64,000 nt of DNA from the NCBI GenBank assembly GCA_963842295.1, contig CAWJFY010000007.1, positions 18,994 to 82,993 of the forward strand, read 5' to 3'. Below, one piece after another: positions 1 to 21,447 of the stretch. The notes below the pieces were generated by a model. It saw only the letters and a program-made list of their open reading frames with translations. It had not been told where the DNA came from and searched no databases. Every line of letters begins with the position of its first letter. Position 1 is the first letter of the stretch. Origin of the DNA: an uncultured Actinomycetota bacterium. Its GTDB lineage: Bacteria > Actinomycetota > UBA4738 > HRBIN12. The position numbers and the translations under genes are program-made.

Positions 1-741
1 GCGCTCCGGTCCCTCGCCGAGGATCACCAGGCGCGCGGGTCGACCCTCGTGGACGCGAGCGAACGCGCGCAGGAGCGTCCCGAAGTCCTTCTGCTTCGAG
101 AGCCTCCCCACCGACAGCACGACGGGCGGCTCCCCCTCACGGAACCAGGGATGATCCAACGGGGTCCTCGCCAGCTCCTTCAGCTCGGGGGTCACGATGG
201 GGTTGTGTACCACCTCGATGCGCTCTCGGGACAGGCCGGTCGTCCGAGCGAGGTCATCCGCCGTCCCGCGGGCGACGGACACGATGCGATCCGCCCACGG
301 GTAGAAGCGCCCGATCAGTCTGGGCATCAGCCGATGCCTCCGGCGGGGTGAATGCGCTGCCTCGAGGGAGAGCGCGTTCTGCTCGTTCACGACCAGCCTC
401 GTGTCCACCCGAGCCAGCGCCCTGGCCCAGATGCCCACGACGTTCACGTAGTTCATCGACGTCAGCATCGCCGCCGGACGTTCGCGCCGCAGGTACCGGA
501 TGAGGCCCGGGATACTCGTGAGGACACGGCCGGAATCCAGGTTCACGATGCGGACCGTGTCGGGAACCTCGAGGAGATAGTGCCCTTCCGCCCGGCTCAG
601 CACGAGGTCCACGTCGTATCCCTGATCCGCGATCCCGCCGGCGAGCTTCGCCATCGCCCGCTCGGCGCCGCCGCCGTCCATGTTCGAAGTGAAGATCGCC
701 ACCCGTACCTTGCCGTTCGACGTGCCACCCCGTTCGGTCAT
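1..741 (-). CDS. Glycosyltransferase, GT4/GT-B fold, partial (C-terminus lies beyond window start)
   Basis: Not in ORF track because there is no in-window stop. Reverse translation from ATG at 741 gives MTERGGTSNGKVRVAIFTSNMDGGGAERAMAKLAGGIADQGYDVDLVLSR..., a typical GT4 N-terminal Rossmann domain. Its ATG overlaps the TGA of the upstream wzx (ATGA). Confidence 0.6.
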   Translation of the reverse strand, partial: MTERGGTSNGKVRVAIFTSNMDGGGAERAMAKLAGGIADQGYDVDLVLSRAEGHYLLEVPDTVRIVNLDSGRVLTSIPGLIRYLRRERPAAMLTSMNYVNVVGIWARALARVDTRLVVNEQNALSLEAAHSPRRRHRLMPRLIGRFYPWADRIVSVARGTADDLARTTGLSRERIEVVHNPIVTPELKELARTPLDHPWFREGEPPVVLSVGRLSKQKDFGTLLRAFARVHEGRPARLVILGEGPER

Positions 742-2341
742 GTGAGCCGCACCACCTTGCGGAACCGATGCCACAGGAGCTGCCTCGCCTCGGCCGGCAG
801 TCCGGCGAAGAACGCGACGATCGCGACGACCCCGGCAGACACGCCGGCGTACAGGACGAGGGTCGGCCACGAGCCTGCGTGGGCGGCGGCGCCGAGCGCG
901 CTCGCGCCGGCGAAGAGCGCGCCGGTCGCGAGCGCCGGCCGCACGATGCCTCTCAGCTGTCGCTCGGGTGGGATGCCGAGCAGCCGGCCGATCATCCACG
1001 GGTAGCTGATGCTCTGGATCGTCCGTCCCACGATGAACCCGAGTGCGAGGCCGATGATCCCCATATCCATTGGGCCGAGGAAGAGCAACGCGAGGCCAAC
1101 CGAGAGAACAGCCGAGAGCGCACCGAGAAGCACCTTCCTGCGAAGGTTGAGCGTCAGGTCGATGATGTTGGCGTCCGTGCGGATCAGGGCGAACTGCAGC
1201 ACCATCAGCATGATCATCAGGACCGCGGCCGGTCCCGGGTAATAGCGCTCGCCGACCCACAGCCGCAGGAACGACTCCTCCCACACCAGCACCGTCGTCC
1301 CCGCCACGATCGTGAAGAGCCAGATCGAACTCATGGTCTCTTTCCGGATGCGATCGGCTCGCGCGAGTTCGCCCGCCCCGATCAGCCCACCGAGCCCCGG
1401 CATGATCGCGACGATCACCGTCGCGACCGCGACGGTGATCGCCTGCGGGATGTATTTGGCCAGGGTGTACGTGGTGACGAGCGCCGGAGACTCCACGACG
1501 CCCAGCACGACGACGTCGCTCGCGAGCATGATCACCATGACGAGGTTCCACAGGAGGAACCACCAGCTGAGGCGCACGAAACGGCCGACCTCGGCCAGAC
1601 TCGGCCTCGCGATGCCGAACCACTCGACACGGGACCGCACGATGAACAGTAGGTCACGCCCCACAGCACGGTGGCGATCGTCGTGGCAACGGCGAGACCG
1701 CCGATCCCATAGCCCATGTAGACGGCGACGACGAGGAGCGTCTTGCTGACGAAGACCAGCAGGACCGACAGGCCCAGCCGTTTGTACCCGAGGTTCTCCC
1801 CCTGCAGGACCGACTGCGGCAGGTAGAGCAGGCTGAACAGGACCGCATCGAGGACCAAGATGGCCGCGGCCACACGGACGGTGCCGTAGTCGGCCGGCGC
1901 AACGTGGAGCCAGATCGGCGCAACCCAGGCGAGCACTCCACCGATCGCGACGAGCAGTGGGAGGAAGAGCACCCACACCGCCAGCGCATTGCCGACCTGC
2001 CGCCGCTTGAAGTCGTAGTCGGTCGATCGCTGCTCGTGCGCGATCGTCCACTTCAGGGCCTCTCCCGGACGGCCGCTCGCCGGCGAGGCGTGCCCGATCA
2101 GTCGCTGAAGCACCTGCCAGATCCCGTAAGTGGTGTCACCGAGCTTCGTCAGCAGGATCGGGCTGATGATCAGCCCCGCGATGATCCGTGCGATCTGTTC
2201 CGCCGTCGACGCGGCGGCGTTCAGCGACGCCTTCTTCGTGAGGCTCCCGTCGGAGACCACTCGCGAGACGGCACGCCCGAGGCGACCCTTCGGCTTGGCC
2301 GCTGGGGTCGCGTCTTCCGTCTTCAGCCCTCCCGGCGCCAT
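738..2341 (-). pseudogene. wzx: Wzx-type oligosaccharide flippase (MOP superfamily) split into two frames by a single frameshift near 1645-1660; genuine pseudogene or assembly indel
   Basis: ORF 1532..2341 encodes the N-terminal multi-TM half (TKLGDTTYGIWQVLQRLIG...). ORF 738..2051 encodes the C-terminal multi-TM half from about residue 134 onward. The two good reading frames meet at about 1648-1652, next to a C4 run. Confidence 0.6.
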
Positions 2342-2344
2342 CCT

Positions 2345-3976
2345 CTAGAGCCTCGACCAGATCACGGATCTGATCTCCGAGAGCACCTGATCCTTGGACG
2401 GAGCAGCGTCGACCACGGTCGCCTGAGAACCGTGCCAATCCATGCGCCAGATCTCCTCCGAACGAGGGCGAACGGAAGACTCAGGCTCGACGCCACGCTT
2501 CCGCTCGACAGCGGTATCGGGGTCGAGCCGAAGCACGATCAGGAGGTCCGGGCTCGCGATCCGATCGTAGTAGCTCCGCTCCATCGCGGCCATGGACCGA
2601 GCCCAACCGCCCCATCGCGACGGATCCTTCATGCGGGCCGTCACAGCTCCGTCCATCAGGGTGACCTGCGGCAGCGGATAGCGGTCGCAGAAGACGACCG
2701 AGCCGTTCGATGCGAGGCGCCGTGCCCTCCGATAGGTGCGGAAACGATCGCGAGCCGTGAGCACCTCCCACGCGAGTCGCGCCCGGTTCCGAAGGGTCAT
2801 CCTGCCCTCGTCGGCAGCGGAGAGAGAAGACCTGAGAACCTTCGCGGAGGACGTGGAAGACCGCTTCGCGGCGGCCACCAGTCTCAGCAGGCTCTTGACG
2901 AGCGCGGTGAGCGGAGACCAACCGGGCTTGCCCATGTGCACCGTGTGCGAGTCGATGTTCTCGGAGGAGAACCAGTGCGACAGCGCATCGACCGCTGTCG
3001 TCTTCCCGGCTCCGTCCCCACCCACGACGGCGATCAGCGCGCCACCCGAAGCCAGACGGTTCTTGACCGGGCCCCGCCGAAGGATCTTCCGTCGGAACAC
3101 GGTCCGGAACCGTCGCCACATCCGCACCCAGGTGTCGACGGCCGGCGGCCGGCGGCTCCAGCCGGCGAGCGTTCGCTGGAGGCGGCTCGCCGTCCTGATC
3201 CCGAACCAGCGTGACGATCCAGGTTTCACGGATCGGAGACATCGCTCCCACAGCTCGCGCGAGATGAAGGGGAAGTGTTCGTCGGTGAGCGCCCAGACCT
3301 CGAGGAGGTCCACCTGCCCGAGGAGGTCATCCAGTTCCCGTCGCTCGCTTCGCGACAGCGATCCCTGGAACGTCACGAACGCATCCCACGTGCAGTGCTT
3401 GACCGTCATCCGGATGAGGAACAGAGCGAGCTCGAAGGCCGGGGAGGGGATCTTGAACGTCCGATCGAGGGTCGCGGAATCGAGGTAGGCGTCCTCGACC
3501 GGCAGGTGGATGTTCTTGGTCATGTCATCGCCGATGACGAGCTGATAGTGGGCGTGGATGTGAACGAAGGCGCCCGTCGGATCGAGCCCGTACGAGTGAT
3601 AGACGCCGGGAAGCTGCTTCCACCGAGGTTGGCGGACATCCTTGAAGCCCAGCCGCCGGAGGATCTCTTCGAAGCGTTCCGCGTCCGATCTGCTCACCAG
3701 AAGATCGAGATCGTTCTCCCCGGTCGCGGATCGCCCGATCGCCTCGTTGCTCTTCCAGTGGCAATACCTGATGCCCTCGGCGTCGAGGGACCTGCAAAGG
3801 ACGGCGATCAGCTCGAGCACGCCGTCGTGTTGGGTCCCACGTTTCGGGTCGCCGGAGGCGGGGACTTCCTGGAACCCCCTCGACGATCCAGCGTCGGAGT
3901 CGAGCACGCCCGCGCCACCCACGGTCTTCCCCGGATCTTGGGTTTCGCGCAGGTGAGCACCTCTGTCAGCGCTCAT
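2345..3976 (-). CDS. Two-domain protein: N-terminal Pol-beta-like nucleotidyltransferase-like domain + C-terminal thymidylate-kinase-family P-loop domain
   Basis: 543 aa ORF. N-terminal region has the NTase-like signature GRSATGENDLDLLV. C-terminal region has TMPK motifs: Walker A IAVVGGDGAGKTT, DRY motif (VVFCDRYP), and PDLLIVLRLDPDTAVERKR resembling the TMPK C-terminal PDLxxxLDV motif. Product unknown. Confidence 0.55.
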   Translation of the reverse strand: MSADRGAHLRETQDPGKTVGGAGVLDSDAGSSRGFQEVPASGDPKRGTQHDGVLELIAVLCRSLDAEGIRYCHWKSNEAIGRSATGENDLDLLVSRSDAERFEEILRRLGFKDVRQPRWKQLPGVYHSYGLDPTGAFVHIHAHYQLVIGDDMTKNIHLPVEDAYLDSATLDRTFKIPSPAFELALFLIRMTVKHCTWDAFVTFQGSLSRSERRELDDLLGQVDLLEVWALTDEHFPFISRELWERCLRSVKPGSSRWFGIRTASRLQRTLAGWSRRPPAVDTWVRMWRRFRTVFRRKILRRGPVKNRLASGGALIAVVGGDGAGKTTAVDALSHWFSSENIDSHTVHMGKPGWSPLTALVKSLLRLVAAAKRSSTSSAKVLRSSLSAADEGRMTLRNRARLAWEVLTARDRFRTYRRARRLASNGSVVFCDRYPLPQVTLMDGAVTARMKDPSRWGGWARSMAAMERSYYDRIASPDLLIVLRLDPDTAVERKRGVEPESSVRPRSEEIWRMDWHGSQATVVDAAPSKDQVLSEIRSVIWSRL

Positions 3977-4140
3977 GGTGCGCTTCTCTCGGACATACCT
4001 TGCTCCACCGCGGTTGGGTTACCTCAGACGTTATGCGAACATCATGCGGAGGGGCACCGGTACGATGACGTACCGCCCCTACGACGTGTGCACGATGGTG
4101 GGCTCTCATGGTGCCTCTACCGTGACAACTCGGGCGGGAA

Positions 4141-4175
4141 CCGGCGTAGACGCCGCGTTCCGGCCTCTACGCCGG
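4141..4175. promoter_or_regulatory. Near-perfect 14-nt inverted repeat (ccggcgtagacgcc / ggcctctacgccgg) with 7-nt spacer in the divergent intergenic region just upstream of wzc
   Basis: Read directly: 4141-4154 and 4162-4175 are reverse complements with one mismatch. It sits 5 nt upstream of the first candidate wzc start (4180) and just upstream of the RBS-like GGATGGGGATGGG. Confidence 0.4.
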
Positions 4176-4179
4176 TCAG

Positions 4180-5868
4180 ATGGACCAGGATGGGGATGGG
4201 ATGAGCAAACAGCTCCAGGAACCTCGCTCGGTCTCCACGGACGGGTCGGTCGACCTCCGTGAGTTCTTGCAGAAGGTAGCTCATCGCAAGTGGCTGGTGC
4301 TTGCGGTGGTCATGCTCGTGACCGGTTTGGCCGCCGGCTACTCGTATTCGCGCCCGGAGGTATTCTCGGCCACCTCGAAGGTGCTGGTCCGCCCGACCCT
4401 CATCCAGCCTGGCGACACCGACCCGTTCGACAACATCAGCATGCCAACCGAGGCGCAGCTGGTCGCAAGTACCGATGTCGCCCGGATCGCGTGGGAGACC
4501 CTCGGATCCTCGGGCCGGATCGTCGACCTGATCAATCGGGTCTCCGTCACGACGCCGGAGAGCACGCAGATCCTCCAGATCACGTTCACGGATCGGAGCG
4601 CCGATGGCGCCCGCGCCGGTGCGCAAGCGTTCGCGCAGGCGTACCTCGAGTTCAAGGCCGAGCAGGCGACGGATGAGATCGCGGCCAACACGGCCAAGGT
4701 CCAGGCTCTGATCGACGACGTGAGCGAGGACATCGTGACCTTGGATGCGCGGATCCAGGACCTCACCCAGGACTCCCCCGAGTGGGCGATCGCGAAGTCC
4801 GACCGCAGATCCGCCGAGGCCCGCAGGTCGGGCCTGCTCGATCAGCTCACGGTGATCACCACGTCCAGCATCGACCCCGGCGAGGTGGTGCAGCGGGCGG
4901 AGCGACCGTCGGTGCCGATCAGCCCGAAGCACCAGGTCGATATCGCGCTCGGCGTCCTCCTGGGGCTCGCGGCCGGTGTCGCCCTCGCCTCGGTGCGGGA
5001 CCAGCTGCAAGACCGCATCCAGAGCCCGACCGCCTTCCGGAAGGTCCTGAAGGCGCCGACCCTGGGGCTCATCCCCGAGTCGCCGATGCTCCGCGGAGAT
5101 CTGCCGCGTCTCGTGACGATCGACGCGCCGCGAAGCCCGGCGGCCGAGGCCTATCGAACGTTACGGACGAATCTCCTGGCGGCTTGCAAGGGGACCAAGG
5201 TGAGGACGGTCCTGGTCACGGGAGCCCGGCAAGGCGAAGGGAAGACGACGACAGCCGTGAATCTGGCGGTCGCGCTCGCGCAGGTGGGCAGATCCGTGGT
5301 CCTCATCGGGGCGGACCTCCGGTACCCGCGCGTGCACTCCGTCCTGGGGATCGGAAACGAGCGGGGCCTCGGTCAAGTGCTCCTGGGATCCGTGTCCCTC
5401 GACGACGCGCTCGTCAACTCGTCCATCCCAGACTTGCGTGTCCTCCCGAGCGGACCGGTGACGGGGATCGATGAGCCTGTCGAGCTCCTGCAGTCGGAGC
5501 GCATGTTCGAGGTCATCCGCAGCTGCCGCCAGGCCGACTTCGTGATCGTGGACGGCCCCCCGATCGAGCCTGTCGCCGACAGCCTCGTGCTGGCCGACCT
5601 GGTCGACGGGGTGCTGCTCGTCACGGACGCTCAGTCGGGGACGCGAGCGGGTGTCTCGCGAACGCGTCTCCAGCTCGAGCAGGTCGGAGCCAACATCCTG
5701 GGCGGGGTCCTGAATCGGGTGGACAAGTCCATGACCCCGGACAGGTACGGCGAGTACGAGCAGAGACGCGGACTCTTGCACAGGTCTCCGTACGACGACA
5801 CCGATCGAGAGCTCGCCTCGCTCCGCCAGGAGACGACGTGGCCCCCAGAGACCTCGAGCCGGGTCTGA
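4180..5868 (+). CDS. wzc: Polysaccharide co-polymerase / BY-kinase (Wzz domain fused to CpsD/CapB-like tyrosine autokinase)
   Basis: N-terminal TM and Wzz-like region (LVLAVVMLVTGLAAGYS). C-terminal P-loop VLVTGARQGEGKTTTAVNLAVALA, Walker B-like DFVIVDGPP, and a Tyr-containing C-terminal tail (RYGEYEQ...SPYDD). Alternative start at 4201. Confidence 0.8.
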   Translation: MDQDGDGMSKQLQEPRSVSTDGSVDLREFLQKVAHRKWLVLAVVMLVTGLAAGYSYSRPEVFSATSKVLVRPTLIQPGDTDPFDNISMPTEAQLVASTDVARIAWETLGSSGRIVDLINRVSVTTPESTQILQITFTDRSADGARAGAQAFAQAYLEFKAEQATDEIAANTAKVQALIDDVSEDIVTLDARIQDLTQDSPEWAIAKSDRRSAEARRSGLLDQLTVITTSSIDPGEVVQRAERPSVPISPKHQVDIALGVLLGLAAGVALASVRDQLQDRIQSPTAFRKVLKAPTLGLIPESPMLRGDLPRLVTIDAPRSPAAEAYRTLRTNLLAACKGTKVRTVLVTGARQGEGKTTTAVNLAVALAQVGRSVVLIGADLRYPRVHSVLGIGNERGLGQVLLGSVSLDDALVNSSIPDLRVLPSGPVTGIDEPVELLQSERMFEVIRSCRQADFVIVDGPPIEPVADSLVLADLVDGVLLVTDAQSGTRAGVSRTRLQLEQVGANILGGVLNRVDKSMTPDRYGEYEQRRGLLHRSPYDDTDRELASLRQETTWPPETSSRV

Positions 5869-6005: not shown

Positions 6006-7394
6006 GTGAAGGTTGCGGTGATGGGTACCGGGCACGTCGGATTGGTGACGTGCGTGACGTTCGCCAGCATCGGACACGAGGTCGTCGGAACGGATGTCGA
6101 TGTCGAGAAGATCGAGCTCCTCCGGCGAGGCATCCCACCGTTCTTCGAGCCCGGACTCGAAGAAGCGATGAAGCGGGAATCGGCCTCGGGACGACTGTCC
6201 TTCAGCACGATCGCGGCCGACGCGCTCCGTGACGCTGAGGTCGTGTTCATCTGCGTCGGCACACCCGCTCGCGCCAACGGCGACGCGAACCTCCTCGCGA
6301 TGGAGCAGTCCGCCGGTCAGATCGCGCGCCACGCTCCTGACGGTGCGGTCGTGGTCGAGAAGTCGACCGTCCCGGCAGGGACGGCGGACCGCGTCCGGAC
6401 CACCTTGCAGCGCGAGGGCGGCGGGAAGAGCTTCTCCCTGGCGTCCAATCCGGAATTCCTGCGCGAAGGGGCGGCGATGCACGATGCGCTCGAACCCGAT
6501 CGCATCGTCATCGGCGTCGAGTCACCCCGGTCGCTCGAAGTCCTCCGGCTTCTCTACGCGCCGTTGCTGGAGGCAGGGATCGATCTGATCGTGACCGACA
6601 TCCGCACGGCCGAGCTCGCGAAGCACGCGAGCAACGCATTCCTCTCCCTGAAGATCTCGTTCGCGAACGCGCTCGCACGCGTTTGCGAGCGCGCGGGCGC
6701 CGACGTGACGGCGGTGGCCGACGTGATGGGCTCCGATCCACGTATCGGCCGAGCGTTCTTGAACGCGGGGATCGGCTACGGCGGGTACTGCTTCCCGAAG
6801 GACGTGGCCGCGCTGAAGCGGCTCTCCGAGCGCCTGGGATATCCCTTCCCGTTGCTGCAGGAGGTCGAGCGGCTGAACGACGAAGCCGTCGAGGCCGCCG
6901 CCGCGAAGGTGGAGGAGGCGCTGTGGAACCTCGAGGGCAAGCGGATCGCGCTCCTCGGGCTGGCGTTCAAGGGCGGCACCGACGACGTCCGCTTCTCCCC
7001 CGCACTGACGCTCGCACGGCGGTTGCTCGCGTCGGGAGCGCACGTGGTCGGGTGCGACCCGCACGCCGCGAGCAACGCGAAGAACGAGCTCCCCGAGCTC
7101 GAGCTGGCAGGCGACGCCTACGAGGCAGCGGCCGGCGCCCACGCGATCGTCATCGCCACCGATTGGGAGGAGTTCCGCAACCTGGATCTCGCCAAACTCC
7201 GGGAGATCATGACCTATCCGTTGGTCGTCGACGGCCGGAATCTGCTGGACTCCGGCGAGATGGCAGAGGCCGGGTTCTGGTACTACCCGACGGGTCGCCC
7301 GCCGGTCGTGCCGCCGCCCACCGACTCGGCCCCGCCCGGGGTCGGTGCGGTCGAGGGATCCGCCTCGGTCGAGCAGCGATCCGCCGCGCCGTGA
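6006..7394 (+). CDS. ugd: UDP-glucose 6-dehydrogenase
   Basis: GTG start; [35 protein letters not shown]-binding N-terminus; full-length UDP-glucose/GDP-mannose dehydrogenase family architecture. Confidence 0.85.
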
Positions 7395-8356
7395 GCCCCT
7401 CGCGGGCCGTCGTGACCGGAGGAGCAGGCTTCGTCGGCTCCCATCTCTGTGATCGGCTCCTGGAGGAGGGCTGGGAAGTCGTGTGTGTCGACTCCCTCCT
7501 CACGGGAAGGACGGAGAACCTCTCATCCGCCATGACCAACGATCGGTTCTCGCTCCATGAAGCGGACATCACCCGAGGGCTGGACATCGAGGGTCCGCTG
7601 GACTGGGTGTTCCACTTCGCGTCTCCCGCGTCGCCGCGCGACTACCTCGAGCACCCGATCGAGACCCTCGAGGTCGGCGCTCTCGGGTCCTTGGAGTGCC
7701 TCCGCCTCGCCCAGAGGAAAGGAGCGAGCGTGTTCCTCGCATCCACATCGGAGGTGTACGGCGATCCCAAGGTGCATCCCCAGCCTGAGTCCTACTGGGG
7801 AAACGTGAATCCGATCGGCCCCAGGTCCGTCTACGACGAAGGCAAGCGGTTCGCCGAGGCGGCCACCATGGCGTATCACCGGGTGCATGGCCTGCCGGTG
7901 CGCATCATCAGGATCTTCAATACCTATGGCCCACGGATGCGGCGCGAGGACGGTCGCGCGGTGCCTTCGTTCATCGACCAGGCCCTTCGCGGCGAGCCGA
8001 TCACGGTCCACGGGGACGGGACTCAGACCCGCTCGCTCTGCTACGTGGATGACCTCATCGAGGGGATCTCGCGGGTCCTCCACGCCGAGCTGACGGGCCC
8101 GATCAACCTCGGCAATACGGAGGAGGTCTCCGTGGCGCAGCTCGCTGAGCTGATCCGCTCGCTGGCCGGAACCGAGTCCCGGGTCGTCTTCACGGAGCGA
8201 CCGGTCGACGACCCCGAGATGCGGCGTCCCGACGCTTCGATGGCTCGCGATCTCCTCGGTTGGGAGCCACAGGTCCCCCTCCGTCAGGGCCTCGCCAAGA
8301 CGATGGAGTGGATGCGCAGCTCGTCGGAGGCCGGCCTCTCGGGTCCGCAGCGGTAG
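7391..8356 (+). CDS. uxs: UDP-glucuronate decarboxylase (UDP-xylose synthase), SDR family
   Basis: GTG at 7391 overlaps the ugd TGA (GTGA). [18 protein letters not shown] Rossmann motif; [18 protein letters not shown] typical of UXS/ArnA decarboxylases. The 557-aa track ORF (6683..8356) is an antisense-style upstream extension. Confidence 0.8.
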
Positions 8357-8397: not shown

Positions 8398-9192
8398 CTA
8401 GCCCTGATCGTCTTCAGGCGCACCAGCCACGCCGGCTCGCACGCCATCCGATCTCACCAGATTGGCCAGCATCCCGCTTTGCGTGACGAACGCCGCGGCT
8501 TCGAGTCTCGAGTGCACCTCGAGCTTGCCGAGGATGTTCTGGATGTGCGTCCGCGCGGTTTGAGGACTGATCACGAGCGCGCGCGCGATGGATTCGTTGT
8601 CGGAGCCCTGTGCGAGGAGCGCCAGGACCTCCCGCTCTCGCACGGTCAGGCGAGCGATGCGTTCGAACGCCCTGTCCTGATCCCGCTTCCGACGGAGCAG
8701 GCCCGTGAGCAACGGCCCCAGCATCGTCGGCGGCACGAGGGTGTCGCCCCGATGGACCGCTCGCGTCGCGTTGATCAGGTCCGCGAGCGGTGACTCTCTC
8801 GTGATGTATCCGCTCGCGCCGGCGTCCAGCACCTCGACGAGGCTCCGGTAATCCTCCCGGGCGCTCAAGACGAGTACCTGGCACCTCGGCACGTTGGCCT
8901 TGATCGCGGCCGTCGTCTGCGAACCGTCCGACATCGGAAGATCGACATCGAGGATCGCGACATGTGGGAGCGTACGCTCCGCCTCGGCGATGGCCTCCTG
9001 CCCGCTGCGGGCCTCGGCGACAACCTGGATCTCGGCCTCGCCTTCGAGCACCGTCCTCAGGGCCTGCCGGAAGAGGGCGTGGCGATCCGCCAGCAACACG
9101 CGGATCGGATCCGGGGTATCGCTCAAACCAACCTTCCTTCGGTCACGTCCGTAGCTGGTGAGAAAAGTACCTACATCGTCGGCACGCAACAC
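8398..9192 (-). CDS. Response regulator, NarL/FixJ family (REC + LuxR-type HTH)
   Basis: IRVLLADRHALFRQAL...DVDLPMSDG receiver; C-terminal LTVREREVLALLAQGSDNESIARALVISPQTARTHIQNILGKL LuxR HTH. True start may be internal to the ORF. Confidence 0.8.
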   Translation of the reverse strand: MLRADDVGTFLTSYGRDRRKVGLSDTPDPIRVLLADRHALFRQALRTVLEGEAEIQVVAEARSGQEAIAEAERTLPHVAILDVDLPMSDGSQTTAAIKANVPRCQVLVLSAREDYRSLVEVLDAGASGYITRESPLADLINATRAVHRGDTLVPPTMLGPLLTGLLRRKRDQDRAFERIARLTVREREVLALLAQGSDNESIARALVISPQTARTHIQNILGKLEVHSRLEAAAFVTQSGMLANLVRSDGVRAGVAGAPEDDQG

Positions 9193-9213
9193 GCACCGGA
9201 CAGCGTAGTGAGG

Positions 9214-9921
9214 CTACGTCGTTCGCGTGGTGCGGGAGCGGTCGGCCGCGCTCTTTCGAGGGACAGACCGTTCGACGACGAAGTCCGGGCCTACGGTTGA
9301 GGGGATGGGCACCACGCGGTGGCGAACCGCCAGCGTCGCGGCCTCGAGTCGCGAATGCACCTGGAGCTTCGTCAGGATGCTCTGCACGTGGGTGCGGACC
9401 GTGTTCCGGCTGATGGCGAGCCGATCCGCGATCGTCCGGCCGTCGGCGCCCTCCACCAGGAGCCCGAGCACCTCTCGCTCGCGAGGGGTCAGCTGGGAGA
9501 TGAGCAACCACGCGCTGTCGCCGGAACCGCTGCGACGGCTGGTATTGGCCAGGCGGTGAGGGAACACCGTCTGTCCGGCCACGATCGCCTCGATCGAGCT
9601 GACGAACCTGCTGACGGGCGTGTCCTTCGTCAGGTAGCCACGGAAGCCGGCGCGCGACGCCTCCTCGACCGCTTTCGGATCGTCGAGGGCGGTCACCACG
9701 ACCAGCTTCGCGTCGGGCCACCAATCGAGGATCTCCCGTCCCACCGCGAGGCCACTTCGGTCTGGCAGCCCGATATCGAGCAGGACCAGGTCCGGTCGAT
9801 CGTCCTCGAGATAGGCGAGCGCGCTCCGCCCGCTGGTAACGACCGCGGCAGCTTCCATCCCGGCGTCCTCCAACGCCGACCTGATCGCCTCCGCGAACAA
9901 GATCTGATCATCGACGATCAG
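9214..9921 (-). CDS. Second NarL/FixJ-family response regulator; no canonical in-frame start
   Basis: Frame reads (TTT)VRILIVDDQILFAEAIRSALEDAGM... The track start at 9900 is TTG (L) inside the receiver domain. Between the upstream in-frame TGA (9985-9987) and 9900 there is no ATG/GTG/TTG. A CTG at 9921-9919 overlaps the TGA stop of the kinase gene (CTGA). Confidence 0.7.
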   Translation of the reverse strand: MIVDDQILFAEAIRSALEDAGMEAAAVVTSGRSALAYLEDDRPDLVLLDIGLPDRSGLAVGREILDWWPDAKLVVVTALDDPKAVEEASRAGFRGYLTKDTPVSRFVSSIEAIVAGQTVFPHRLANTSRRSGSGDSAWLLISQLTPREREVLGLLVEGADGRTIADRLAISRNTVRTHVQSILTKLQVHSRLEAATLAVRHRVVPIPSTVGPDFVVERSVPRKSAADRSRTTRTT

Positions 9922-11534
9922 GATGCGGACCGTTGTGGTTCCCTCCCATCCACGGGCAGCAACATGTGGAACGTTGCGCCCCCCTCATCAGAATCCACCC
10001 AGATACGTCCTCCATGTGCCTCAACCACGCGGCGGGTGATGAAGAGGCCAAGGCCGTTTCCATTCCCCGCCCGCGACCCCGCTCCGCCACGAACGAACGG
10101 GTCGAAGATGACCCCGCGTTCCGCGAGAGGGACGCCGGGCCCTTGGTCGCCTACGCTCACGCGTACGGCTCCGTGTTCATCCGTCACGTGAACACTCACG
10201 ACGCCACCTGGATCCGAATAGAGCACCGCGTTCCGCACCAGGTTCACGACGGCTGCCCGCAGGTGCGTCGGATCCGCCAGGGCCATGATCGGCGGCGGTG
10301 CGACGACCAGGACCGTACCGTCGGCCCCGTGGAGGAGTCGGTAGGTCGCAACGGCGTCCTCAACCAGCTGGGCCACGTCGACGTAGCGTGGGCTCAGCTC
10401 GTTGCCTCCTGTCGCCCACCCGAGGATCCCCTCCGTGTCCGTGGCGAGCTGGTCGAGCTCGCGAACCGAGAGTCGGAGCAACGCTTCGTCCCGCGATGCG
10501 CCACGGCCGACGACGCTCTCGAGCGCGGCCTTCACCCCGAGGATGGGCGTGCGCAGCTCATGCGCCGTCCAGGCCAATCCGACGTTCAGTTCCGACGTTC
10601 GTTGCTCTTCCCTCGCCGACGCGGACAGCAACGGAAGGGTGTCGTCGATCAGTGAGGCGATCATCTCGACCCGTCGTTGCAAGAGCGGCCCATCGTTCGC
10701 AACGAACAAGAGCGCGTCACCCGCTTCGCGAACGGTGGCCTGGCTGGCTCCCACCGCATCGGCGAATCGCTCGCTGAGGTCGGCCCGCTGACGCGACGTC
10801 GTCCTCGCCCAGGGAAGGACCGGGCCCATACGCTGCTCGAGCCGCTCGCAGTCTCCGGGGTTCAGACCCGCGACGGACGTGAGGGCACGAGGACCGTGAT
10901 CCTCGCCCCACCAGATGGCGACGGGCGCACGGAACTCGCGCCAGAGGGCGCCCGCGACCATCCGGAGAGCCATCTCCGGGCCGTCGGCGTGCAGGAGATC
11001 CCGACCGATCCCCGCGACTCCCTCGAGAGCCTCCACCTCCCGTTCCAACTCTCCGCGTTCGGCCAGCCCCGCGAGCACACCCGCCAACTGACAGGCGATA
11101 GCAGCCAGCATGCCGGATCGCTCCAGGAGGGCATCTCGTCGTGCCTGGACCTCGAGGACCCCCAACGAGGTCTCCCGCCAGACCAGGGGGAAGAACGCCA
11201 CTCTCGTGTCCGCCGCTCGGAGGTCGAGATGGGAGTAGACCCTCGTTTGGAAGGCCACCCGCCGTGCCGTCAGCTGCGCACGGCCCTGATGGGCTCCGGC
11301 TCCCTCGCGCCAAGCGGCTCGAAGACGGCCGGCAGCATCGGGCCTGGAGATCTGCACAGCCGCTTCAGGACCCACGATCTCCCGGATCCATCCGCTGGCA
11401 GAGGCGGCGGCTTCATCGGGATGGTGCGCCGAAGCCAGTGCGTAGGAAAGGCTCTCAACTACGCTTCCGACGGCATCCGCCGATGTGACGTCCGGATCAA
11501 GGTCCGAACCACGCCAGGGGGAGCTGGCCGCCAC
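9918..11534 (-). CDS. Sensor histidine kinase (GAF-type N-terminal region, HisKA + HATPase_c)
   Basis: H-box HELRTPILGV; N/G boxes NLVRNAVLYS, GDQGPGVP, GNGLGLFI. Confidence 0.85.
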   Translation of the reverse strand: MAASSPWRGSDLDPDVTSADAVGSVVESLSYALASAHHPDEAAASASGWIREIVGPEAAVQISRPDAAGRLRAAWREGAGAHQGRAQLTARRVAFQTRVYSHLDLRAADTRVAFFPLVWRETSLGVLEVQARRDALLERSGMLAAIACQLAGVLAGLAERGELEREVEALEGVAGIGRDLLHADGPEMALRMVAGALWREFRAPVAIWWGEDHGPRALTSVAGLNPGDCERLEQRMGPVLPWARTTSRQRADLSERFADAVGASQATVREAGDALLFVANDGPLLQRRVEMIASLIDDTLPLLSASAREEQRTSELNVGLAWTAHELRTPILGVKAALESVVGRGASRDEALLRLSVRELDQLATDTEGILGWATGGNELSPRYVDVAQLVEDAVATYRLLHGADGTVLVVAPPPIMALADPTHLRAAVVNLVRNAVLYSDPGGVVSVHVTDEHGAVRVSVGDQGPGVPLAERGVIFDPFVRGGAGSRAGNGNGLGLFITRRVVEAHGGRIWVDSDEGGATFHMLLPVDGREPQRSAS

Positions 11535-11979
11535 TCTCCGCTTCCTTTCTCCATCGTCGGAACAGTGCTGACGATAATCTTTCCCGGTGATCAGCGGAGT
11601 AGTCGTCCGGGGGTTTTTGTCCCCCGCATGGACCTACTGCACCCTAGGAAATCTCCGCCATTCAGACTAGCTACAACAACGTAGGCGCAACCCTACAACG
11701 CGGAAGGTGTTCTGGAAAGCCCTTTCCGGAAAATTGCTTCCGACACCTCGACAAGGCGGGATCCGGTTGCACGGCCCATCATGTCGGCCACTGCTCGGCT
11801 TCGTGCACCGCCTCCGAAACCACGGAGCGCGTCCGACCGTGTGCCCTTCTGCGAATCACGCCGCTTCCGCAGGAAACCTACGTTGCAAAGCCCCCGCGCC
11901 TCAGATAGCGGTGATAGACAATGAGGGTCTACATTGCTCCTCACCCCCCAAGAGTAACCATGTAGAGGACCGGGCAAGC

Positions 11980-12465
11980 ATGGGAACCATGGCGCAGGAG
12001 ATCGGGCGGGCGCTCCGTCGTGCTCGGCTCGCGCGCAGGATGACGCTCAAGGACCTCGCGGATGCGTCTGCCGACAGGTTCCGACCGACGTCCGTCGCGG
12101 GGTACGAGCGCGGTGAACGGAAGATCTCGCTGGTGCGCTTCTGTGAGCTGTGCCGGTTATTGGACGTTCCTCCCGAACGCGTGCTCGGCGAGATCCTCCG
12201 AGCTGTCGAAGGACGCTCGGAACCCGGGATCGATCTGACGAAGCTCGAGCGACTGGCAACGCCGGAGAGTGAGCTCATCACGGGGTTCATCCGCCAGGTG
12301 CTCTCGCAACGAGGGGAACTGGACGTCGAAGCGGTCGTCCTTCGAGCCGGAGATGTCGAAGTGCTCGCATCGGCTTCCGGGCGCAGACCGGATGAGCTCA
12401 TCGACCTCGTGAGCTCCGCACGGTCCGGCCGGGATCCGGATGCTCACCGGGACGAGTCCGGTTGA
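11980..12465 (+). CDS. XRE-family (Cro/C1-type) HTH transcriptional regulator
   Basis: ATG at 11980 in frame within ORF 11707..12465. LARRMTLKDLADASADRFRPTSVAGYERGERKISLVRFCELCRLL HTH_XRE signature. Confidence 0.65.
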   Translation: MGTMAQEIGRALRRARLARRMTLKDLADASADRFRPTSVAGYERGERKISLVRFCELCRLLDVPPERVLGEILRAVEGRSEPGIDLTKLERLATPESELITGFIRQVLSQRGELDVEAVVLRAGDVEVLASASGRRPDELIDLVSSARSGRDPDAHRDESG

Positions 12466-14839: not shown

Positions 14840-15637
14840 GTGGCAGAAGGCGACACCGTGATCGCGACCGCCGCCCGGCTGCATGAGGCGCTCGCGGGAC
14901 GGCTCCTCACGCGAACCGACTTCCGGGTTCCCCGCTTCGCGACGGCCGATCTCTCCGGCCAGGCCGTCCGCGAGGTCGTGTCGCGAGGCAAGCATCTTCT
15001 CGTGCGCACGGACGGCGCGGTTTCCGTCCACTCCCACCTCGGGATGGACGGCGCGTGGCGCCTGTACACGCCCGGCGAGCGGTGGCGAGGGCGCTCCTTC
15101 GAGGTCCGAGGCGTGCTCGAGACCGAGCGGCTGATCGCGGTCGGGCATCGGTTGCGCAGGCTCGAGGTGCTCCGGACCTCAGCGGAGGCGGACGTGCTGG
15201 ACCATCTCGGCCCCGACGTCCTGGGACCGGACTGGGACCCCGCCGAGGCGGCCCGCAGGCTCACGGCGTCTCCGGAGCGGGAGCTGGGCGAGGCTCTCGT
15301 CGATCAGTCGGTGATGGCGGGCCCCGGCAATGTCTATAGGTCGGAGGTGTGCTTCCTGGCCGGGATCGACCCGCGAACACACATCGGAGAAGTCCCGGAC
15401 CCGACGGAGCTCGTCGATCTCATGAAGTCGCTGATGGAACGCAACCGCGCCGGAGGGAGGCGGGTGACCACGGACGATCCCCGGCGAGGCCACGAGCTGT
15501 GGGTCTACGGCCGGCGAGGCCGACCGTGCCGGCGGTGCGGAACTTCTGTCCTCTCGTTCATGCAAGGTTCTGTCGGCGAGGAGCGTGTGGCCTACGTGTG
15601 CCCACGCTGCCAACCGCCGCGGGGCACCATCGCCTAG
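14840..15637 (+). CDS. nei: Endonuclease VIII-like DNA glycosylase (Fpg/Nei family, Nei2-like)
   Basis: GTG start: M-AEGDTVIATAARLHEALAGRLLTRTDF (Nei PEGD-type N-terminus, but Ala replaces the catalytic Pro2). H2TH region; C-terminal zinc finger CRRCG...CPRC. Confidence 0.75.
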   Translation: MAEGDTVIATAARLHEALAGRLLTRTDFRVPRFATADLSGQAVREVVSRGKHLLVRTDGAVSVHSHLGMDGAWRLYTPGERWRGRSFEVRGVLETERLIAVGHRLRRLEVLRTSAEADVLDHLGPDVLGPDWDPAEAARRLTASPERELGEALVDQSVMAGPGNVYRSEVCFLAGIDPRTHIGEVPDPTELVDLMKSLMERNRAGGRRVTTDDPRRGHELWVYGRRGRPCRRCGTSVLSFMQGSVGEERVAYVCPRCQPPRGTIA

Positions 15638-17193
15638 CTGACGACCGACCGACTTCCAGCGAGGGTCGTGTGGAGATCGCCGGAATCGACGGCAGCGCCG
15701 TTCGCAACCGCGACTCGACGTCCACGTCGTCCCCTTCCTCGGGAGATCAGGGTCCGTGGCACCGCCACTTCACAACCGACGGCCTCTGTTTCCCAGTCGA
15801 GGCAGTGGTCGGTCCCAGGTCCGCCCCTCGATGAGTCGCTGTCGTCGTTGCCCATCAGAAGGTCGTCGCCCCCTTGGCCACGTAGGGCATCGTGTCCGAA
15901 CCCGCCGGCGATCCGATCGTTCCCTGTGCCTCCCAGGATCAGGTCGTCGCCGTCATCGCCATAGATGGCGTCGTCGTCCGGGCCGGCGTCAACGGTGTCC
16001 ACCCCCGCGCCTCCGTGTATGACGTCATTCCCGGACCCACCGGCGATCATGTCATCGCCCAATCGGGCGCCGAGCGCGTCGTTGCCCAGGCCACCCATCA
16101 GCACATCGGTCTCGCCGCCTCGGCCACCGTCGCAGAAGTCGTTCCCCGCTCCACCCAGCAGCGTGTCGGCACCGAACTGACCGAGGAGGGCATCGTGTCC
16201 GAACCCACCTGCGAGCCGATCTCTCCCCTCCCCCCCGTCCAGCACGTCCATCCCGTATCCACCGCAGACCCAGTCGTTCCCTCCAGCTCCCACAACGATG
16301 TCGTTCCCTCCGAGAGCGGATATCACGTCGGGACCTTTCGTGCCCAAAAGCCGATCATCGCCCTGCGTTCCCACGATCGTCGGGGATCTGCCGCCGCAGC
16401 GGCGGGCCGATCGATGCGTGTGGGGGGAACGCTCGCATCCAGGCCTGCGTTCGCTCTGTAGGCACAGGTCCCGATCGGCACCTCCCGTCGCCACATCGAA
16501 CCCCTTGCCTCCGAAGAGGATGTCGTGTCCCTCCTCTCCGAATAGCCGGTCGCGATGGTCCAGCCCGTAGAGGAGATCGGCGCCGCTCCCCGCGATGAGC
16601 CGATCGCCGCCCTCGTCCCCCACGATCATGTCAGCGTCCGTACCACCCTCGAGAAGATCTGCGTCCCCCGCGCCTCGCAGGTAGTCTCGGCCAGGACCGC
16701 CCTTGAGGACGTCGGCCCCCGGACCAGCGTTGATGAGGGCATCGCTGCCGCTCCCGCCGAACAGACTGTCCGAACCGCGGTCCCCGCCCCCCGATGTCAT
16801 GATGTCGTTACCCCCGTTGCCGCTTTGCGTGTCGTTCCCTCCGACACCGAAGAGACCATCGTCGCCCGCGCCACCGAACAGGTGGTCGGCCCCACTGCCT
16901 CCGATGATCTCGTCGTTCCCAGCATCGCCGCAGACCATGTCGTCGCCCTCATACGCGTAGATCACGTCATCGCCGCCAAGGCCAGCGATGACGTCGGCAC
17001 CTTGAGTTCCCACGATGGTGTCACCGTCCGTCGTCCCGACGATCGTGAGGGTCAGGCCACCACACGTCGACTGGGCCACGGCATGTGTGGGGAGGGACAC
17101 GACCGTTGCTCCGGCAAGGCACAGAAGGGTCGCCCACGCGCTCGAGCGGCGGCTCAGTCCAGTCAGGCGCCGGAGGGTTCCCGCGGGCGTCAC
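15634..17193 (-). CDS. Secreted hemolysin-type calcium-binding repeat (RTX-like) protein
   Basis: Signal peptide with RR motif (LRRLTGLSRRSSAWATLLCLAGA). Many GGxGxDxL/I nonapeptide repeats (GGSGADHLFGGAGDDGLFGVGGNDT...). Its 3' end overlaps the nei 3' end by 4 nt (convergent). Confidence 0.8.
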   Translation of the reverse strand: MTPAGTLRRLTGLSRRSSAWATLLCLAGATVVSLPTHAVAQSTCGGLTLTIVGTTDGDTIVGTQGADVIAGLGGDDVIYAYEGDDMVCGDAGNDEIIGGSGADHLFGGAGDDGLFGVGGNDTQSGNGGNDIMTSGGGDRGSDSLFGGSGSDALINAGPGADVLKGGPGRDYLRGAGDADLLEGGTDADMIVGDEGGDRLIAGSGADLLYGLDHRDRLFGEEGHDILFGGKGFDVATGGADRDLCLQSERRPGCERSPHTHRSARRCGGRSPTIVGTQGDDRLLGTKGPDVISALGGNDIVVGAGGNDWVCGGYGMDVLDGGEGRDRLAGGFGHDALLGQFGADTLLGGAGNDFCDGGRGGETDVLMGGLGNDALGARLGDDMIAGGSGNDVIHGGAGVDTVDAGPDDDAIYGDDGDDLILGGTGNDRIAGGFGHDALRGQGGDDLLMGNDDSDSSRGGPGTDHCLDWETEAVGCEVAVPRTLISRGRGRRGRRVAVANGAAVDSGDLHTTLAGSRSVVS

Positions 17194-17455
17194 GGCGCAA
17201 ATCTACCCTCATCGGACCCGGCGACGGCTGCTGGTGGCAACAGATCGGGCGACAACGGGATGCTCGAGCGCGATCGGAAGCAGACGGGCTGGTCGGTCGG
17301 GCAGGCGGCGTGCGGCTCGGCGCGAGCATTCGCGAGTACCGGGAACTCGACGAGGCCGGCACCCGCTGGCCGACGTCTGAAACCTTCCACCGGATCTGCG
17401 ATCTGTTCGAAGGTTCAGGTCCGCGAACGCTAGGTCACTAGGCCGAAACCATCCG

Positions 17456-21191: not shown

Positions 21192-21447
21192 GATCCGAGG
21201 AAGCTAGCACAGGGGTTGAGCGGAGCTCTGGCTCGGCGCACGATCACAGGAGAGCAACCTCCCTCTCGGGAGAGACCGATTCCCATCCCATGAGCGCAGA
21301 GGTTCGTGCTCAAGAAAAAGGGGTGCGGGTGCCGATGACTCGTGGTACAAAACAACGCGGATCCGTGCCGCTTGTCGGACTCGCGGGCACTTGACCCGGG
21401 AGCCGTCGCCGTACTCGGAGGAAGGCGGAGGAGCGGAAGTGGAGAGG

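Follow-up and report, generated by a model that had tools for sequence, protein, structure and literature searches.

A fused nucleotidyltransferase-fold and thymidylate kinase-fold protein of extracellular polysaccharide loci belongs to a large unnamed family

Introduction

PsmN, encoded in the pseudomycoidin lasso-peptide cluster, is a protein which we take to be a member of PF14907, the "uncharacterised nucleotidyltransferases" (NTP_transf_5). It adds hexose(s) to a phosphate put on by the kinase PsmK, and ANT(2'') has been cited as its template (PMC6993621). In vitro reconstitution of PsmN has not been achieved so far (PMC11912497).

Nucleotidyl and phosphoryl transfer are brought together in a single polypeptide in PAPS synthase, HldE and FKP. 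The same logic appears in the protein studied here, in which a Pol-beta-type nucleotidyltransferase (NTase) fold is joined to a thymidylate kinase (TMPK) fold. The protein is encoded in a 64-kb stretch of DNA (hereafter the window) from an uncultured Actinomycetota bacterium. Like PsmN and PF14907, its N-terminal part has a Pol-beta NTase fold with a DxD motif and is found alongside a kinase, and ANT(2'') is the nearest solved template for both. It differs from PsmK/PsmN in that the kinase has a TMPK fold and is not HPr-kinase-like, the two domains are fused in cis, and the context is polysaccharide and not RiPP biosynthesis. Unlike PAPS synthase, HldE and FKP, it is not homologous to ATP sulfurylase or CysDN, nor to ribokinase/GHMP kinases.

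Results

The fusion gene and its locus

Features of the locus are listed in Table 1. A preliminary description of the window, made from the sequence alone, reported an ORF of 543 aa placed between a wzx flippase gene and wzc and transcribed divergently from the latter. The ORF was found exactly as described, with both neighbours in the reported positions and orientations. All motifs quoted at that time are present as well: GRSATGENDLDLLV (residues 81-94), GGDGAGKTT (319-327), DRY (431-433), and PDLLIVLRLDPDTAVERKR (476-494). The fusion gene is the first in the operon fusion-wzx-GT-wzy-sulfotransferase. When the intergenic region between the divergent operons was scanned with promoter and terminator consensus patterns, no sigma-70-like or terminator-like sites came to light.

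Table 1. Coordinates of the fusion gene, its coding segments and neighbouring features in the window
Feature	Position	Strand	Remarks
Whole ORF, NTase-fold and TMPK-fold fusion	2345..3976	-	543 aa + stop, ATG start
N-terminal extension, residues 1-50	3827..3976	-	predicted disordered, pLDDT 26-32; poorly conserved beyond close relatives (alignment)
Pol-beta-type NTase-fold domain, residues 51-277	3146..3826	-	PF14907-like core and helical bundle
D89-L90-D91 codons, DxD metal-binding motif of the NTase domain	3704..3712	-	invariant in 51/51, down to 31% identity
Inter-domain helix, residues 278-300	3077..3145	-	cationic, Trp/Phe-rich, amphipathic; helix 278-298 in model
TMPK-fold P-loop kinase domain, residues 301-543	2348..3076	-	
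Walker A / P-loop codons G319-G-D321-G-A-G-K325-T-T327	2996..3022	-	G319, D321, G322, G324 in 51/51; K325 in 50/51
D431-R432-Y433 codons, TMPK/dNK-type [DE]-R-aromatic motif	2678..2686	-	D/E 51/51, R 51/51, aromatic 50/51
wzx, MOP-family flippase	738..2341	-	3 nt downstream of fusion gene, same orientation
Divergent intergenic region, fusion operon / wzc operon	3977..4179	.	
wzc-like chain-length determinant / BY-kinase (Wzz and AAA_31/ParA-type P-loop)	4180..5868	+	divergent from fusion gene
UDP-glucose/GDP-mannose dehydrogenase, wzc operon	6006..7394	+	
NAD-dependent epimerase/dehydratase, next after dehydrogenase	7391..8356	+	ORF in window; gene at L006 5622-6587

The protein encoded on a 505-kb contig, 99.6% identical to the window, is the same in 542 of 543 positions. 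Because of this near-identical protein and a large set of homologs, the fusion ORF is far more than a chance reading frame. Compared with this contig, which has wzx as an intact ORF of 534 aa, the window lacks 1 nt near position 1649, and its wzx falls into two reading frames. Gene order on that contig is fusion-wzx-GT4-wzy-ST-GT4-ST-ST (ST, sulfotransferase), continued by a convergent pair of ST and kinase paralog. The pattern in the window's clade is fusion-wzx-GT-wzy followed by four sulfotransferases; since these lie in the same operon, the product in this clade is probably a sulfated EPS.

Organization and conservation of the two domains

The preliminary description proposed a two-domain architecture, an NTase-like region followed by a kinase domain. 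This is borne out by a confident full-length structure model (pLDDT 81.3, pTM 0.76) and by conserved motifs of both domains. Residues D89, D91, D132, the Walker A glycines, D321, R432 and R492 are invariant across 51 sequences down to 31% identity, and K75 and K325 are each present in 50 of the 51 over the same range. Judged by this conservation, both active sites look intact.

In the N-terminal domain, the motifs comprise C72-H-W-K75-S76 on beta1, followed after 12 residues by D89-L-D91-L, then D132 and H139-x-H141-x-H143. The signature hG[GS] x9-13 Dh[DE]h thus occurs in a variant form, W74-K75-[S/G]76, 12 residues, D89-L-D91-L, in which K fills the position of Gly. Residue 76 is S or G in all 51 sequences. 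In the predicted structure the signature is placed on beta1-helix-beta2, and D132, a candidate for the third catalytic carboxylate, is located at the end of the predicted strand 125-131. Modelled alone, the domain has a pLDDT of 87.5 and shows the alpha/beta core of NTases. Its closest structural neighbours are NTases, with MenT1 at the top and ANT(2'') among them, in line with the Pol-beta-type region described before. The window protein scores 22.2 bits with PF14907, below the gathering threshold of 31.2; 21 of 22 family members match this profile at E<0.01 (best E 1.3e-7). The N-domain looks like a divergent, PF14907-like branch of Pol-beta NTases. From ANT(2''), LnuA and MenT toxins it differs by W-K-[SG] in place of hG[GS], by the HxHxH strand and a near-invariant Cys that are not described for them, and by the lack of resistance or toxin-antitoxin context. 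Similarity to LicD / fukutin / FKRP phosphotransferases is weak and only structural; the LicD signature PF04991 has no match in the fusion protein, and genes for making CDP-alcohols were not recognised in the locus.

The helix which connects the domains has a hydrophobic moment of 0.80, the highest in the protein, and a net charge of +5 to +8. Its cationic character is kept across the family (median charge +5). These properties make the linker a candidate membrane-interface helix.

The C-terminal domain has the TMPK-type P-loop (GxDGxGK), the DR[YH] motif and the lid arginine (R492, in 51/51); its lid aligns to that of TMPKs in HMMER alignments, and a TMPK fold is predicted, all in agreement with the hallmarks first noted. 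By sequence and by structure TMPKs are its closest relatives, with identities of 14-21%. Single-sequence searches of PDB gave only marginal TMPK matches (E=0.028), and profiles and structure prediction were needed for the assignment. No other TMPK-type P-loop exists in the 64-kb window, which is a small part of a genome of several Mb.

In dTMP kinase (PF02223 / TIGR00041), the Arg of the "REP" motif binds the dTMP phosphate, whereas in the fusion family this position is an invariant Gly within the invariant H-x-G-[KR]-P. As an illustration, "TREPGG" of V. cholerae TMK pairs with "HMGKPG", and the Arg falls on G349. The fusion C-domain also differs by a poorly conserved insertion of ~40 residues (360-395), by being joined to an NTase domain, and by its location in EPS operons with paralogs. 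Scores with the TIGR00041 equivalog are 28.2 bits for the whole protein and 32.7 for the C-domain alone, against a cutoff of 83.25. The score with PRK07933 is 26.6 versus 193, and with PF02223 25.4 versus 27, a threshold which a few family members pass. Compared with the M. tuberculosis sequence, the thymine-stacking Phe position presumably reads Thr/Cys, to which we give no weight. Because the TIGR00041 score is far below the cutoff and the REP Arg is replaced by an invariant Gly, these sequence comparisons indicate that the fusion protein is not the ordinary dTMP kinase of the cell. The EPS context agrees with this; the preliminary description had remarked that a housekeeping tmk is about 210 aa and not fused.

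Neighbourhoods across the family

Gene neighbourhoods were surveyed in 51 species-level loci, each with at least 12 kb of flanking sequence. Association with wzx and wzc extends beyond the window: polysaccharide genes accompany the fusion gene in 48 of the 51 loci (GT4 in 78%, Wzx in 55%, Wzy in 49%, and Wzc in 47%). Wzx is the commonest adjacent gene on the same strand (15/49 loci), and Wzc, within 10 kb in 47%, is directly adjacent in 9/49. Synteny of the polysaccharide operons is conserved across phyla. In the Chelatococcus daeguensis plasmid pTAD1 the order is Wzc-like gene, fusion homolog, small AAA/P-loop protein, and Wzx; the fusion homolog of strain TAD1 is WP_071924605.1. With the seeds used, no recognisable polysaccharide genes were detected in 2 of the 51 loci, including the one in the cultured Blastococcus capsensis (L061).

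A sulfotransferase is located within 10 kb in 55% of the 51 loci, and about half of the loci, among them one in cultured Chelatococcus, are without one. The census relies on conservative first-round matches, which were cross-checked by scanning for the PAPS-binding motif, with reversed sequences as a control. The negatives are confirmed by this motif scan (4/42, compared with 30/44 in the positives) and by annotated loci. A transitive phmmer closure of sulfotransferases was discarded, as the set grew out of hand (168 ORFs, then 488, then 1,139), in all likelihood due to low-complexity shadow ORFs in high-GC DNA. A GC3-based gene caller was also left out of the census, having picked antisense frames at 71-72% GC. 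Since about half of the loci lack sulfotransferases, the role of the fusion protein is more general than sulfation.

Family size and variants

A word-indexed search revealed >1,800 homologs of the fusion protein, and an exhaustive profile search with E<=1e-30 gave 1,462 representatives of 50%-identity clusters. With few exceptions these are 480-525 aa long and match the profile end to end, and almost all have two domains. The family, found mostly in uncultured soil Actinomycetota, is large, unnamed and widely conserved but unstudied. No characterised family could be named for this architecture at the outset, and literature searches on PF14907/NTP_transf_5 and on thymidylate kinase combined with sulfotransferase, nucleotidyltransferase or polysaccharide found no description of it.

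Variants with three domains, the third being another kinase, do exist: one 90% cluster contains six full-length members. A Wzx-fusion protein (P0198) is a singleton which could be an artefact of assembly or gene calling. Furthermore, several paralogous kinase domains occur per cluster in the same polysaccharide clusters. The partner small kinase gave only generic NMP-kinase-like matches in PDB and NCBIfam, with no match to APS kinase in these searches.

Discussion

We propose, with a probability of roughly 0.55, that members of this family are bifunctional enzymes of the cytoplasm, dedicated to extracellular polysaccharide loci of the Wzx/Wzy type, where they would perform a two-step modification of a precursor at the membrane. 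The fusion protein would act at the inner membrane face, beside the flippase, and modify a polysaccharide precursor in two nucleotide-dependent steps, one after the other; the likeliest precursors are a lipid-linked repeat unit and a dedicated donor. First, its kinase domain would put on a phosphate from ATP. The NTase-fold domain would then attach a nucleotidyl or phospho-linked group, either to this phosphate or to a hydroxyl nearby, with the kinase acting before the NTase as in PsmK/PsmN. Many loci have a second small P-loop kinase, either adjacent to the fusion or joined to it as a third domain, which may take part. The usual substrates of P-loop kinases in the TMPK/NMP-kinase class are nucleotides or small molecules and not lipid-linked glycans, and the TMPK features kept (Asp321 of the P-loop, the A-R-D-R helix, the lid Arg and the [DE]R motif) might just as well point to a nucleotide-like acceptor.

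Precursor activation, essentially the suggestion of the preliminary description, is possible although rather doubtful. Here the kinase would phosphorylate a free non-standard sugar, polyol or acid, and the NTase would make an NDP-linked donor for a glycosyl- or phospho-transferase of the cluster, by the logic of HldE, FKP and Gtp3/Gtp2 with non-homologous folds. It agrees with the pairing of kinase and NTase in one protein of a sugar-polymer locus, with the conservation of both active sites, and with the absence of another obvious sugar-1-phosphate NTase from some clusters, while the tight link with Wzx and the amphipathic helix indicate the membrane over soluble metabolism. The folds also differ from the known ones: sugar-1-phosphate nucleotidyltransferases have Rossmann-like PF00483 or cytidylyltransferase folds, sugar kinases are of the GHMP, ribokinase or ASKHA type, and we know of no Pol-beta NTase that makes an NDP-sugar. 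Nucleotidylylation of target proteins is carried out by GlnE and GlnD, and an NTase that modifies an export protein (e.g. tyrosines of Wzc), coupled to a kinase phosphorylating the same or a partner protein, might tune polymerisation and export. In the window's clade the gene and wzc are transcribed divergently, in Chelatococcus it is directly downstream of a Wzc-like gene, and both MenT1, the top structural neighbour, and the relative TglT act on macromolecules. Such a regulator is nevertheless unlikely, considering that Wzc is near the fusion gene in only 47% of loci and seldom adjacent, that several paralogs per cluster are more typical of tailoring enzymes, and that TMPK-fold kinases are, to our knowledge, not among the known protein kinases.

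The sulfotransferase-rich context of the window's clade resembles the setting of PAPS synthase, and it could be imagined that the NTase adenylylates sulfate and the kinase phosphorylates APS, giving a non-homologous PAPS synthase that feeds the sulfotransferases. We regard this as very unlikely: the fusion protein shows no homology to PF01747, CysD/CysN or PF01583, its kinase is closer to TMPK than to APS kinase, and co-occurrence with sulfotransferases is not obligate, at 55% of 51 loci. Similarly improbable is a broader version, in which the fusion together with partner or paralogous P-loop kinases would form a system for PAPS synthesis or sulfonucleotide handling, with sulfotransferase-free members diverged to other anionic acceptors, e.g. 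phosphate. A plain dTMP kinase with an N-terminal extension, as in the "thymidylate kinase" label which JGI gives to family members, has in its favour the best sequence and structure match of the C-domain, the P-loop Asp, the DR-aromatic motif and the lid Arg. It is already largely refuted by the equivalog scores, the Gly in place of the REP arginine, the low identity to TMPKs, the consistent EPS operon context, several paralogous kinase domains per cluster, and a patchy distribution in some lineages only, not universal. A MenT/AbiEii-like NTase toxin or defence module fused to a kinase is a reading already disfavoured and hardly credible: PADLOC models gave only P-loop noise (E>=0.0086), an antitoxin-like partner is absent, and synteny is kept within polysaccharide operons across phyla.

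At present, members of the family are either ignored as "hypothetical protein" or mislabelled as "thymidylate kinase", and the annotation error corrected here could lead metabolic reconstruction of these MAGs astray. Genetic tests of function are possible in two cultured hosts, Chelatococcus daeguensis TAD1 and Blastococcus capsensis BMG 804. In recent literature, sulfated polysaccharides of bacteria are still presented as an essentially cyanobacterial feature (PMC13390465). Our survey flags sulfotransferase-rich EPS loci as a whole class in uncultured soil Actinomycetota, and if the sulfonucleotide reading were true, they would hold a previously unrecognised, widespread pathway of sulfated EPS. 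If membrane-associated two-step modification, the reading we prefer, is true, a large enzyme family, with no fewer than 1,400 clusters at 50% identity, would contribute to Wzx/Wzy assembly a phospho- or nucleotide-dependent tailoring step, with folds new to that job.

The fusion gene and its locus

The ORF reported in the preliminary description was recovered with an ATG start and every motif quoted for it, and its neighbours were also as described. According to ORF and profile annotation, wzx follows after 3 nt in the same orientation, while the divergent wzc-type gene (Wzz plus P-loop, BY-kinase-like) begins on the opposite strand, about 200 bp upstream, and is followed by UDP-glucose dehydrogenase and then an epimerase. 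A homologue identical in 542/543 residues (G219 in the window, E219 in the homologue) is present on a separate ENA metagenome contig of 505 kb (L006), 99.6% identical to the window across 14 kb, and this independent assembly shows that the gene is real. The wzx gene is an intact 534-aa ORF in L006, and its frame break in the window is due to an indel error of long-read sequencing or else marks a pseudogene specific to the strain.

L006 also reveals the region cut off at the left edge of the window. The fusion opens an operon that continues with wzx, GT4, wzy, a sulfotransferase (ST) gene, GT4, ST, and a Gal-3-O-sulfotransferase-like gene, with a convergent ST and a tandem-kinase paralog downstream. 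All four STs in L006 score above Pfam gathering thresholds, and their presence in the operon system of the fusion implies that the exopolysaccharide (EPS) of this uncultured actinomycete would be sulfated. Equivalent ST-rich loci accompany homologues of 50-70% identity and are found in many MAGs of soil Actinomycetota.

Coordinates of the fusion gene, its neighbours and related features
Feature	Location	Strand	Remarks
NTase-kinase fusion	window 2345-3976	-	543 aa
wzx flippase	window 738-2341	-	break near 1649, two overlapping frames, one base missing relative to L006
HxHxH strand 139-143 and near-invariant Cys72	window about 3548-3562 and 3761-3763	-	alignment, n = 51
Four ST genes	L006 15602-20417		just past the left edge of the window; PF00685/PF13469 (three), Gal-3-O-sulfotransferase-like (one)
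486-aa tandem TMPK-like protein	L006 20392->21632; also L024 20347-21518, L048 8834-11720	- (L006)	in operon with ST; in L048, second NTase-kinase gene next to fusion
Chelatococcus daeguensis pTAD1 module	L087 87345-116826		Wzc-like, fusion homologue, small AAA protein, Wzx
Regulatory genes	window 8398-12465		two LuxR/GerE-type response regulators, histidine kinase, BldD-like HTH
RTX repeat protein	window 15637-17202	-	522 aa; nine calcium-binding nonapeptide repeat matches (PF00353, 203 bits)
Sulfatase	window 19779-21203	-	PF00884 and N-sulphoglucosamine sulphohydrolase C-terminal domain
K319L-like PKD-domain proteins	L003 4628-8545; L004 15929-18250; L061 14448-19296		large; near fusion

Other features of the window were recorded as well. 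The regulatory genes are bordered by the wzc operon on one side and a further epimerase on the other; the arrangement is syntenic in L001, L002 and L006, and is thus probably the dedicated regulatory module of the EPS cluster. The sulfatase is about 16 kb distant from the EPS operon, and turnover of sulfated glycans may be encoded nearby. RTX repeat proteins, such as the one found here, are uncommon in Actinomycetota.

Domain identity and active-site residues

Profile evidence for the two domains, taken alone, is marginal. PF02223 (thymidylate kinase) matched with 25.4 bits (gathering score 27) and covered only the P-loop region, PF14907 (NTP_transf_5) reached 22.2 bits (gathering score 31.2), and TIGR00041, the NCBI dTMP-kinase equivalog, 28.2 bits (cutoff 83.25); the whole protein thus failed curated membership on score in TIGR00041/PF02223 and PF14907. 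The weak PF02223 and PF14907 matches were repeated in 22/22 and 21/22 diverse family members, respectively, and TMPKs ranked first when the family profile was compared with PDB (E=2e-5). An AlphaFold2 model built from an alignment of 22 sequences is confident (pLDDT 81.3, pTM 0.76) except for the disordered N-terminal 50 residues. The best 50 Foldseek matches in PDB were all thymidylate kinases. Structural neighbours of the NTase domain were MenT1 (score 9.6), 5uvd (9.2), ANT(2″) (4xje; 8.6), TM1012 and LnuA (8.2 each), TglT (7.0), Pol beta (6.7) and the glycan-modifying FKRP (5.3). Model and structure searches therefore confirm the initial assignment of an NTase and a TMPK domain. The protein would work like a minimal Pol-beta NTase to which a kinase of the P-loop NMP type is attached.

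Residue conservation was assessed by aligning the window protein with 50 representatives, down to 31% identity (n=51). In the NTase domain, D89 and D91 of the DxD motif and D132 are present in 51/51 sequences and K75 in 50/51, always followed by S or G at position 76. The signature W-K-[SG], 12 residues, D-L-D-L, located on beta1, helix and beta2 of the model, corresponds to the classical hG[GS] x9-13 Dh[DE]h, but with Lys in place of Gly. H139, H141 and H143 are conserved in 46-47/51 sequences; their strand and Cys72 adjoin the DxD strand, and may form an additional metal site. To our knowledge, neither is a described feature of the nearest NTases.

In the kinase domain, G319, D321, G322 and G324 of the P-loop, [DE]431, R432 and R492 are found in 51/51 sequences, K325 and R505 in 50/51, and position 433 is aromatic. 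The motif H347-x-G349-[KR]-P351 is invariant. In a HMMER alignment to Vibrio TMK it overlies T-R-E-P-G-G of TMPKs, where the dTMP-phosphate-binding Arg is replaced by an invariant Gly. With these residues conserved and the REP segment altered in this way, the domain is predicted to be a P-loop kinase descended from TMPKs, competent but with its acceptor site remodelled. Two domains make up the fusion and, judging from sequence, both the NTase-type and the TMPK-type kinase site look intact. Helix 279-296, which joins them, carries a net charge of +5 to +8, and its hydrophobic moment (0.80) exceeds that of every other part of the protein; this is kept across the family and would suit a putative attachment to an anionic membrane surface.

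Family size and distribution

Homologues numbered 1,835 in a word-indexed search, and each of the best 120 is about 500-550 aa long. When 1.84 billion representatives at 50% identity were searched exhaustively with the profile, 1,462 matched at E<=1e-30 and 2,570 at E<=1e-10; almost without exception they are 480-525 aa long and cover the profile from end to end. Existing names are "thymidylate kinase" (JGI), "hypothetical protein" and, once, "nucleotidyltransferase family protein" (NCBI). Among species-representative genomes, 106 species carry a homologue: the majority are uncultured Actinomycetota, including Acidimicrobiia and Nocardioidaceae, together with scattered MAGs of Chloroflexota, Planctomycetota, Gemmatimonadota and Acidobacteriota, and one cultured strain, Blastococcus capsensis BMG 804. 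A full-length homologue (28% identity, E=1e-33) also resides on the megaplasmid of the cultured Chelatococcus daeguensis TAD1.

In about a dozen longer representatives (roughly 700-740 aa), the small kinase is appended as a third domain. This variant is real, since one 90% cluster contains six full-length members from different sources. A single protein of 1,054 aa (P0198) has a full Wzx flippase (Polysacc_synt_3, 257 bits) at the N-terminus of the NTase-kinase; this could be a genuine fusion or the result of a frameshift or an overlooked stop codon, and as a singleton from one contig of 7 kb it is weak evidence.

Genomic context of the family

Context was surveyed in 51 species-level loci having no less than 12 kb of flanking sequence; Pfam-validated proteins served as seeds. 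Polysaccharide genes of any kind occurred in 48/51 loci: GT4 in 78%, Wzx and sulfotransferase in 55% each, Wzy in 49% and Wzc in 47%. An extra kinase-like gene was present in 57%. As a cross-check of the ST census, an independent PAPS-binding-motif scan matched 30/44 ST-positive loci, 4/42 negative loci and 1/86 reversed-sequence controls. STs were absent from the Pfam-annotated L003 and from the RefSeq-annotated Chelatococcus locus, and loci lacking ST matches are genuine negatives.

The commonest directly adjacent same-strand gene is Wzx (15/49 loci), and the order fusion, small P-loop protein (about 225 aa), Wzx is repeated from Actinomycetota through Chelatococcus, whose small protein has only the P-loop region in common with the actinobacterial ones. 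By its gene neighbourhood the fusion belongs to polysaccharide assembly of the Wzx/Wzy type, its closest links being with the flippase and with a second, small kinase. Besides the small P-loop protein, paralogs of the fusion kinase domain within the clusters include the C-terminal half of the tandem TMPK-like protein (28% identity, E=2e-15). Some clusters include a second NTase-kinase gene, as in L048, where a divergent NTase plus kinase gene adjoins the fusion.

The Chelatococcus EPS locus is of XrtA/PEP-CTERM type, with an annotated FemAB-like protein and XrtA-system deacetylase, and even in this well-curated locus NCBIfam has no model for the fusion architecture. Another recurrent P-loop family, with the motif ELCGLPGAGKTT, was observed about 5 kb downstream of the fusion in L040, L047, L049, L052, L053 and L066, which are ST-free loci of a distant clade. 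Large PKD-domain proteins are encoded near the fusion in three distant loci; in that of the cultured B. capsensis (L061), polysaccharide genes were otherwise not recognised.

Possible function

We suggest that the fusion would carry out two nucleotide-dependent steps on the cytoplasmic side of the membrane: a precursor of the polysaccharide would be phosphorylated, and a nucleotidyl or phospho-linked group then transferred. Functionally, the closest precedent comes from the pseudomycoidin pathway with its kinase PsmK and with PsmN, presumably a PF14907 member. PsmK phosphorylates a Ser, and hexoses are attached to this phosphate by PsmN, which comes from an "uncharacterised nucleotidyltransferase" family; ANT(2″) served as the template for modelling PsmN, and a DxD double mutant inactivates it (PMC6993621). 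PsmN has not been reconstituted in vitro (PMC11912497).

Activation of a soluble precursor, as proposed in the preliminary description, is plausible if doubtful, and would require folds that, to general knowledge, have never been observed in such a role. Modification of Wzc by the fusion as a regulator is unlikely. A non-homologous PAPS synthase is attractive for the clade of the window with its four STs, and canonical CysC/N/D/Sat motifs were found neither in the window nor in 84/86 loci, but canonical PAPS genes may sit elsewhere, as in Actinoplanes (PMC13390465). Half of the family belongs to ST-free clusters and the fusion kinase is nearer to TMPK than to APS kinase, and because of this PAPS synthesis is contradicted as a general function and considered quite improbable. 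A MenT-like toxin, for which PADLOC was negative, is hardly to be expected.

Equally improbable is the housekeeping tmk. A dTMP kinase identity was rejected as the score is far below the equivalog cutoff of TIGR00041; furthermore, the family is patchily distributed, located in polysaccharide loci, accompanied by kinase-domain paralogs inside the same clusters, and deviates from TMPKs in the substrate-binding Arg of REP. No further TMPK-type P-loop was found within the 64-kb window, which says little for a multi-megabase genome.

We found no paper describing the NTase-TMPK fusion architecture. Its folds and its "kinase plus transferase" logic are known, and their combination and context are undescribed. 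The two-step action on a precursor would make this large, mis-annotated family a plausible new tailoring step, in no conflict with established biology, and the cultured alphaproteobacterium C. daeguensis offers a tractable system for its genetics. The ST-rich EPS loci of soil Actinomycetota marked by the fusion may hold no less interest than the fusion.
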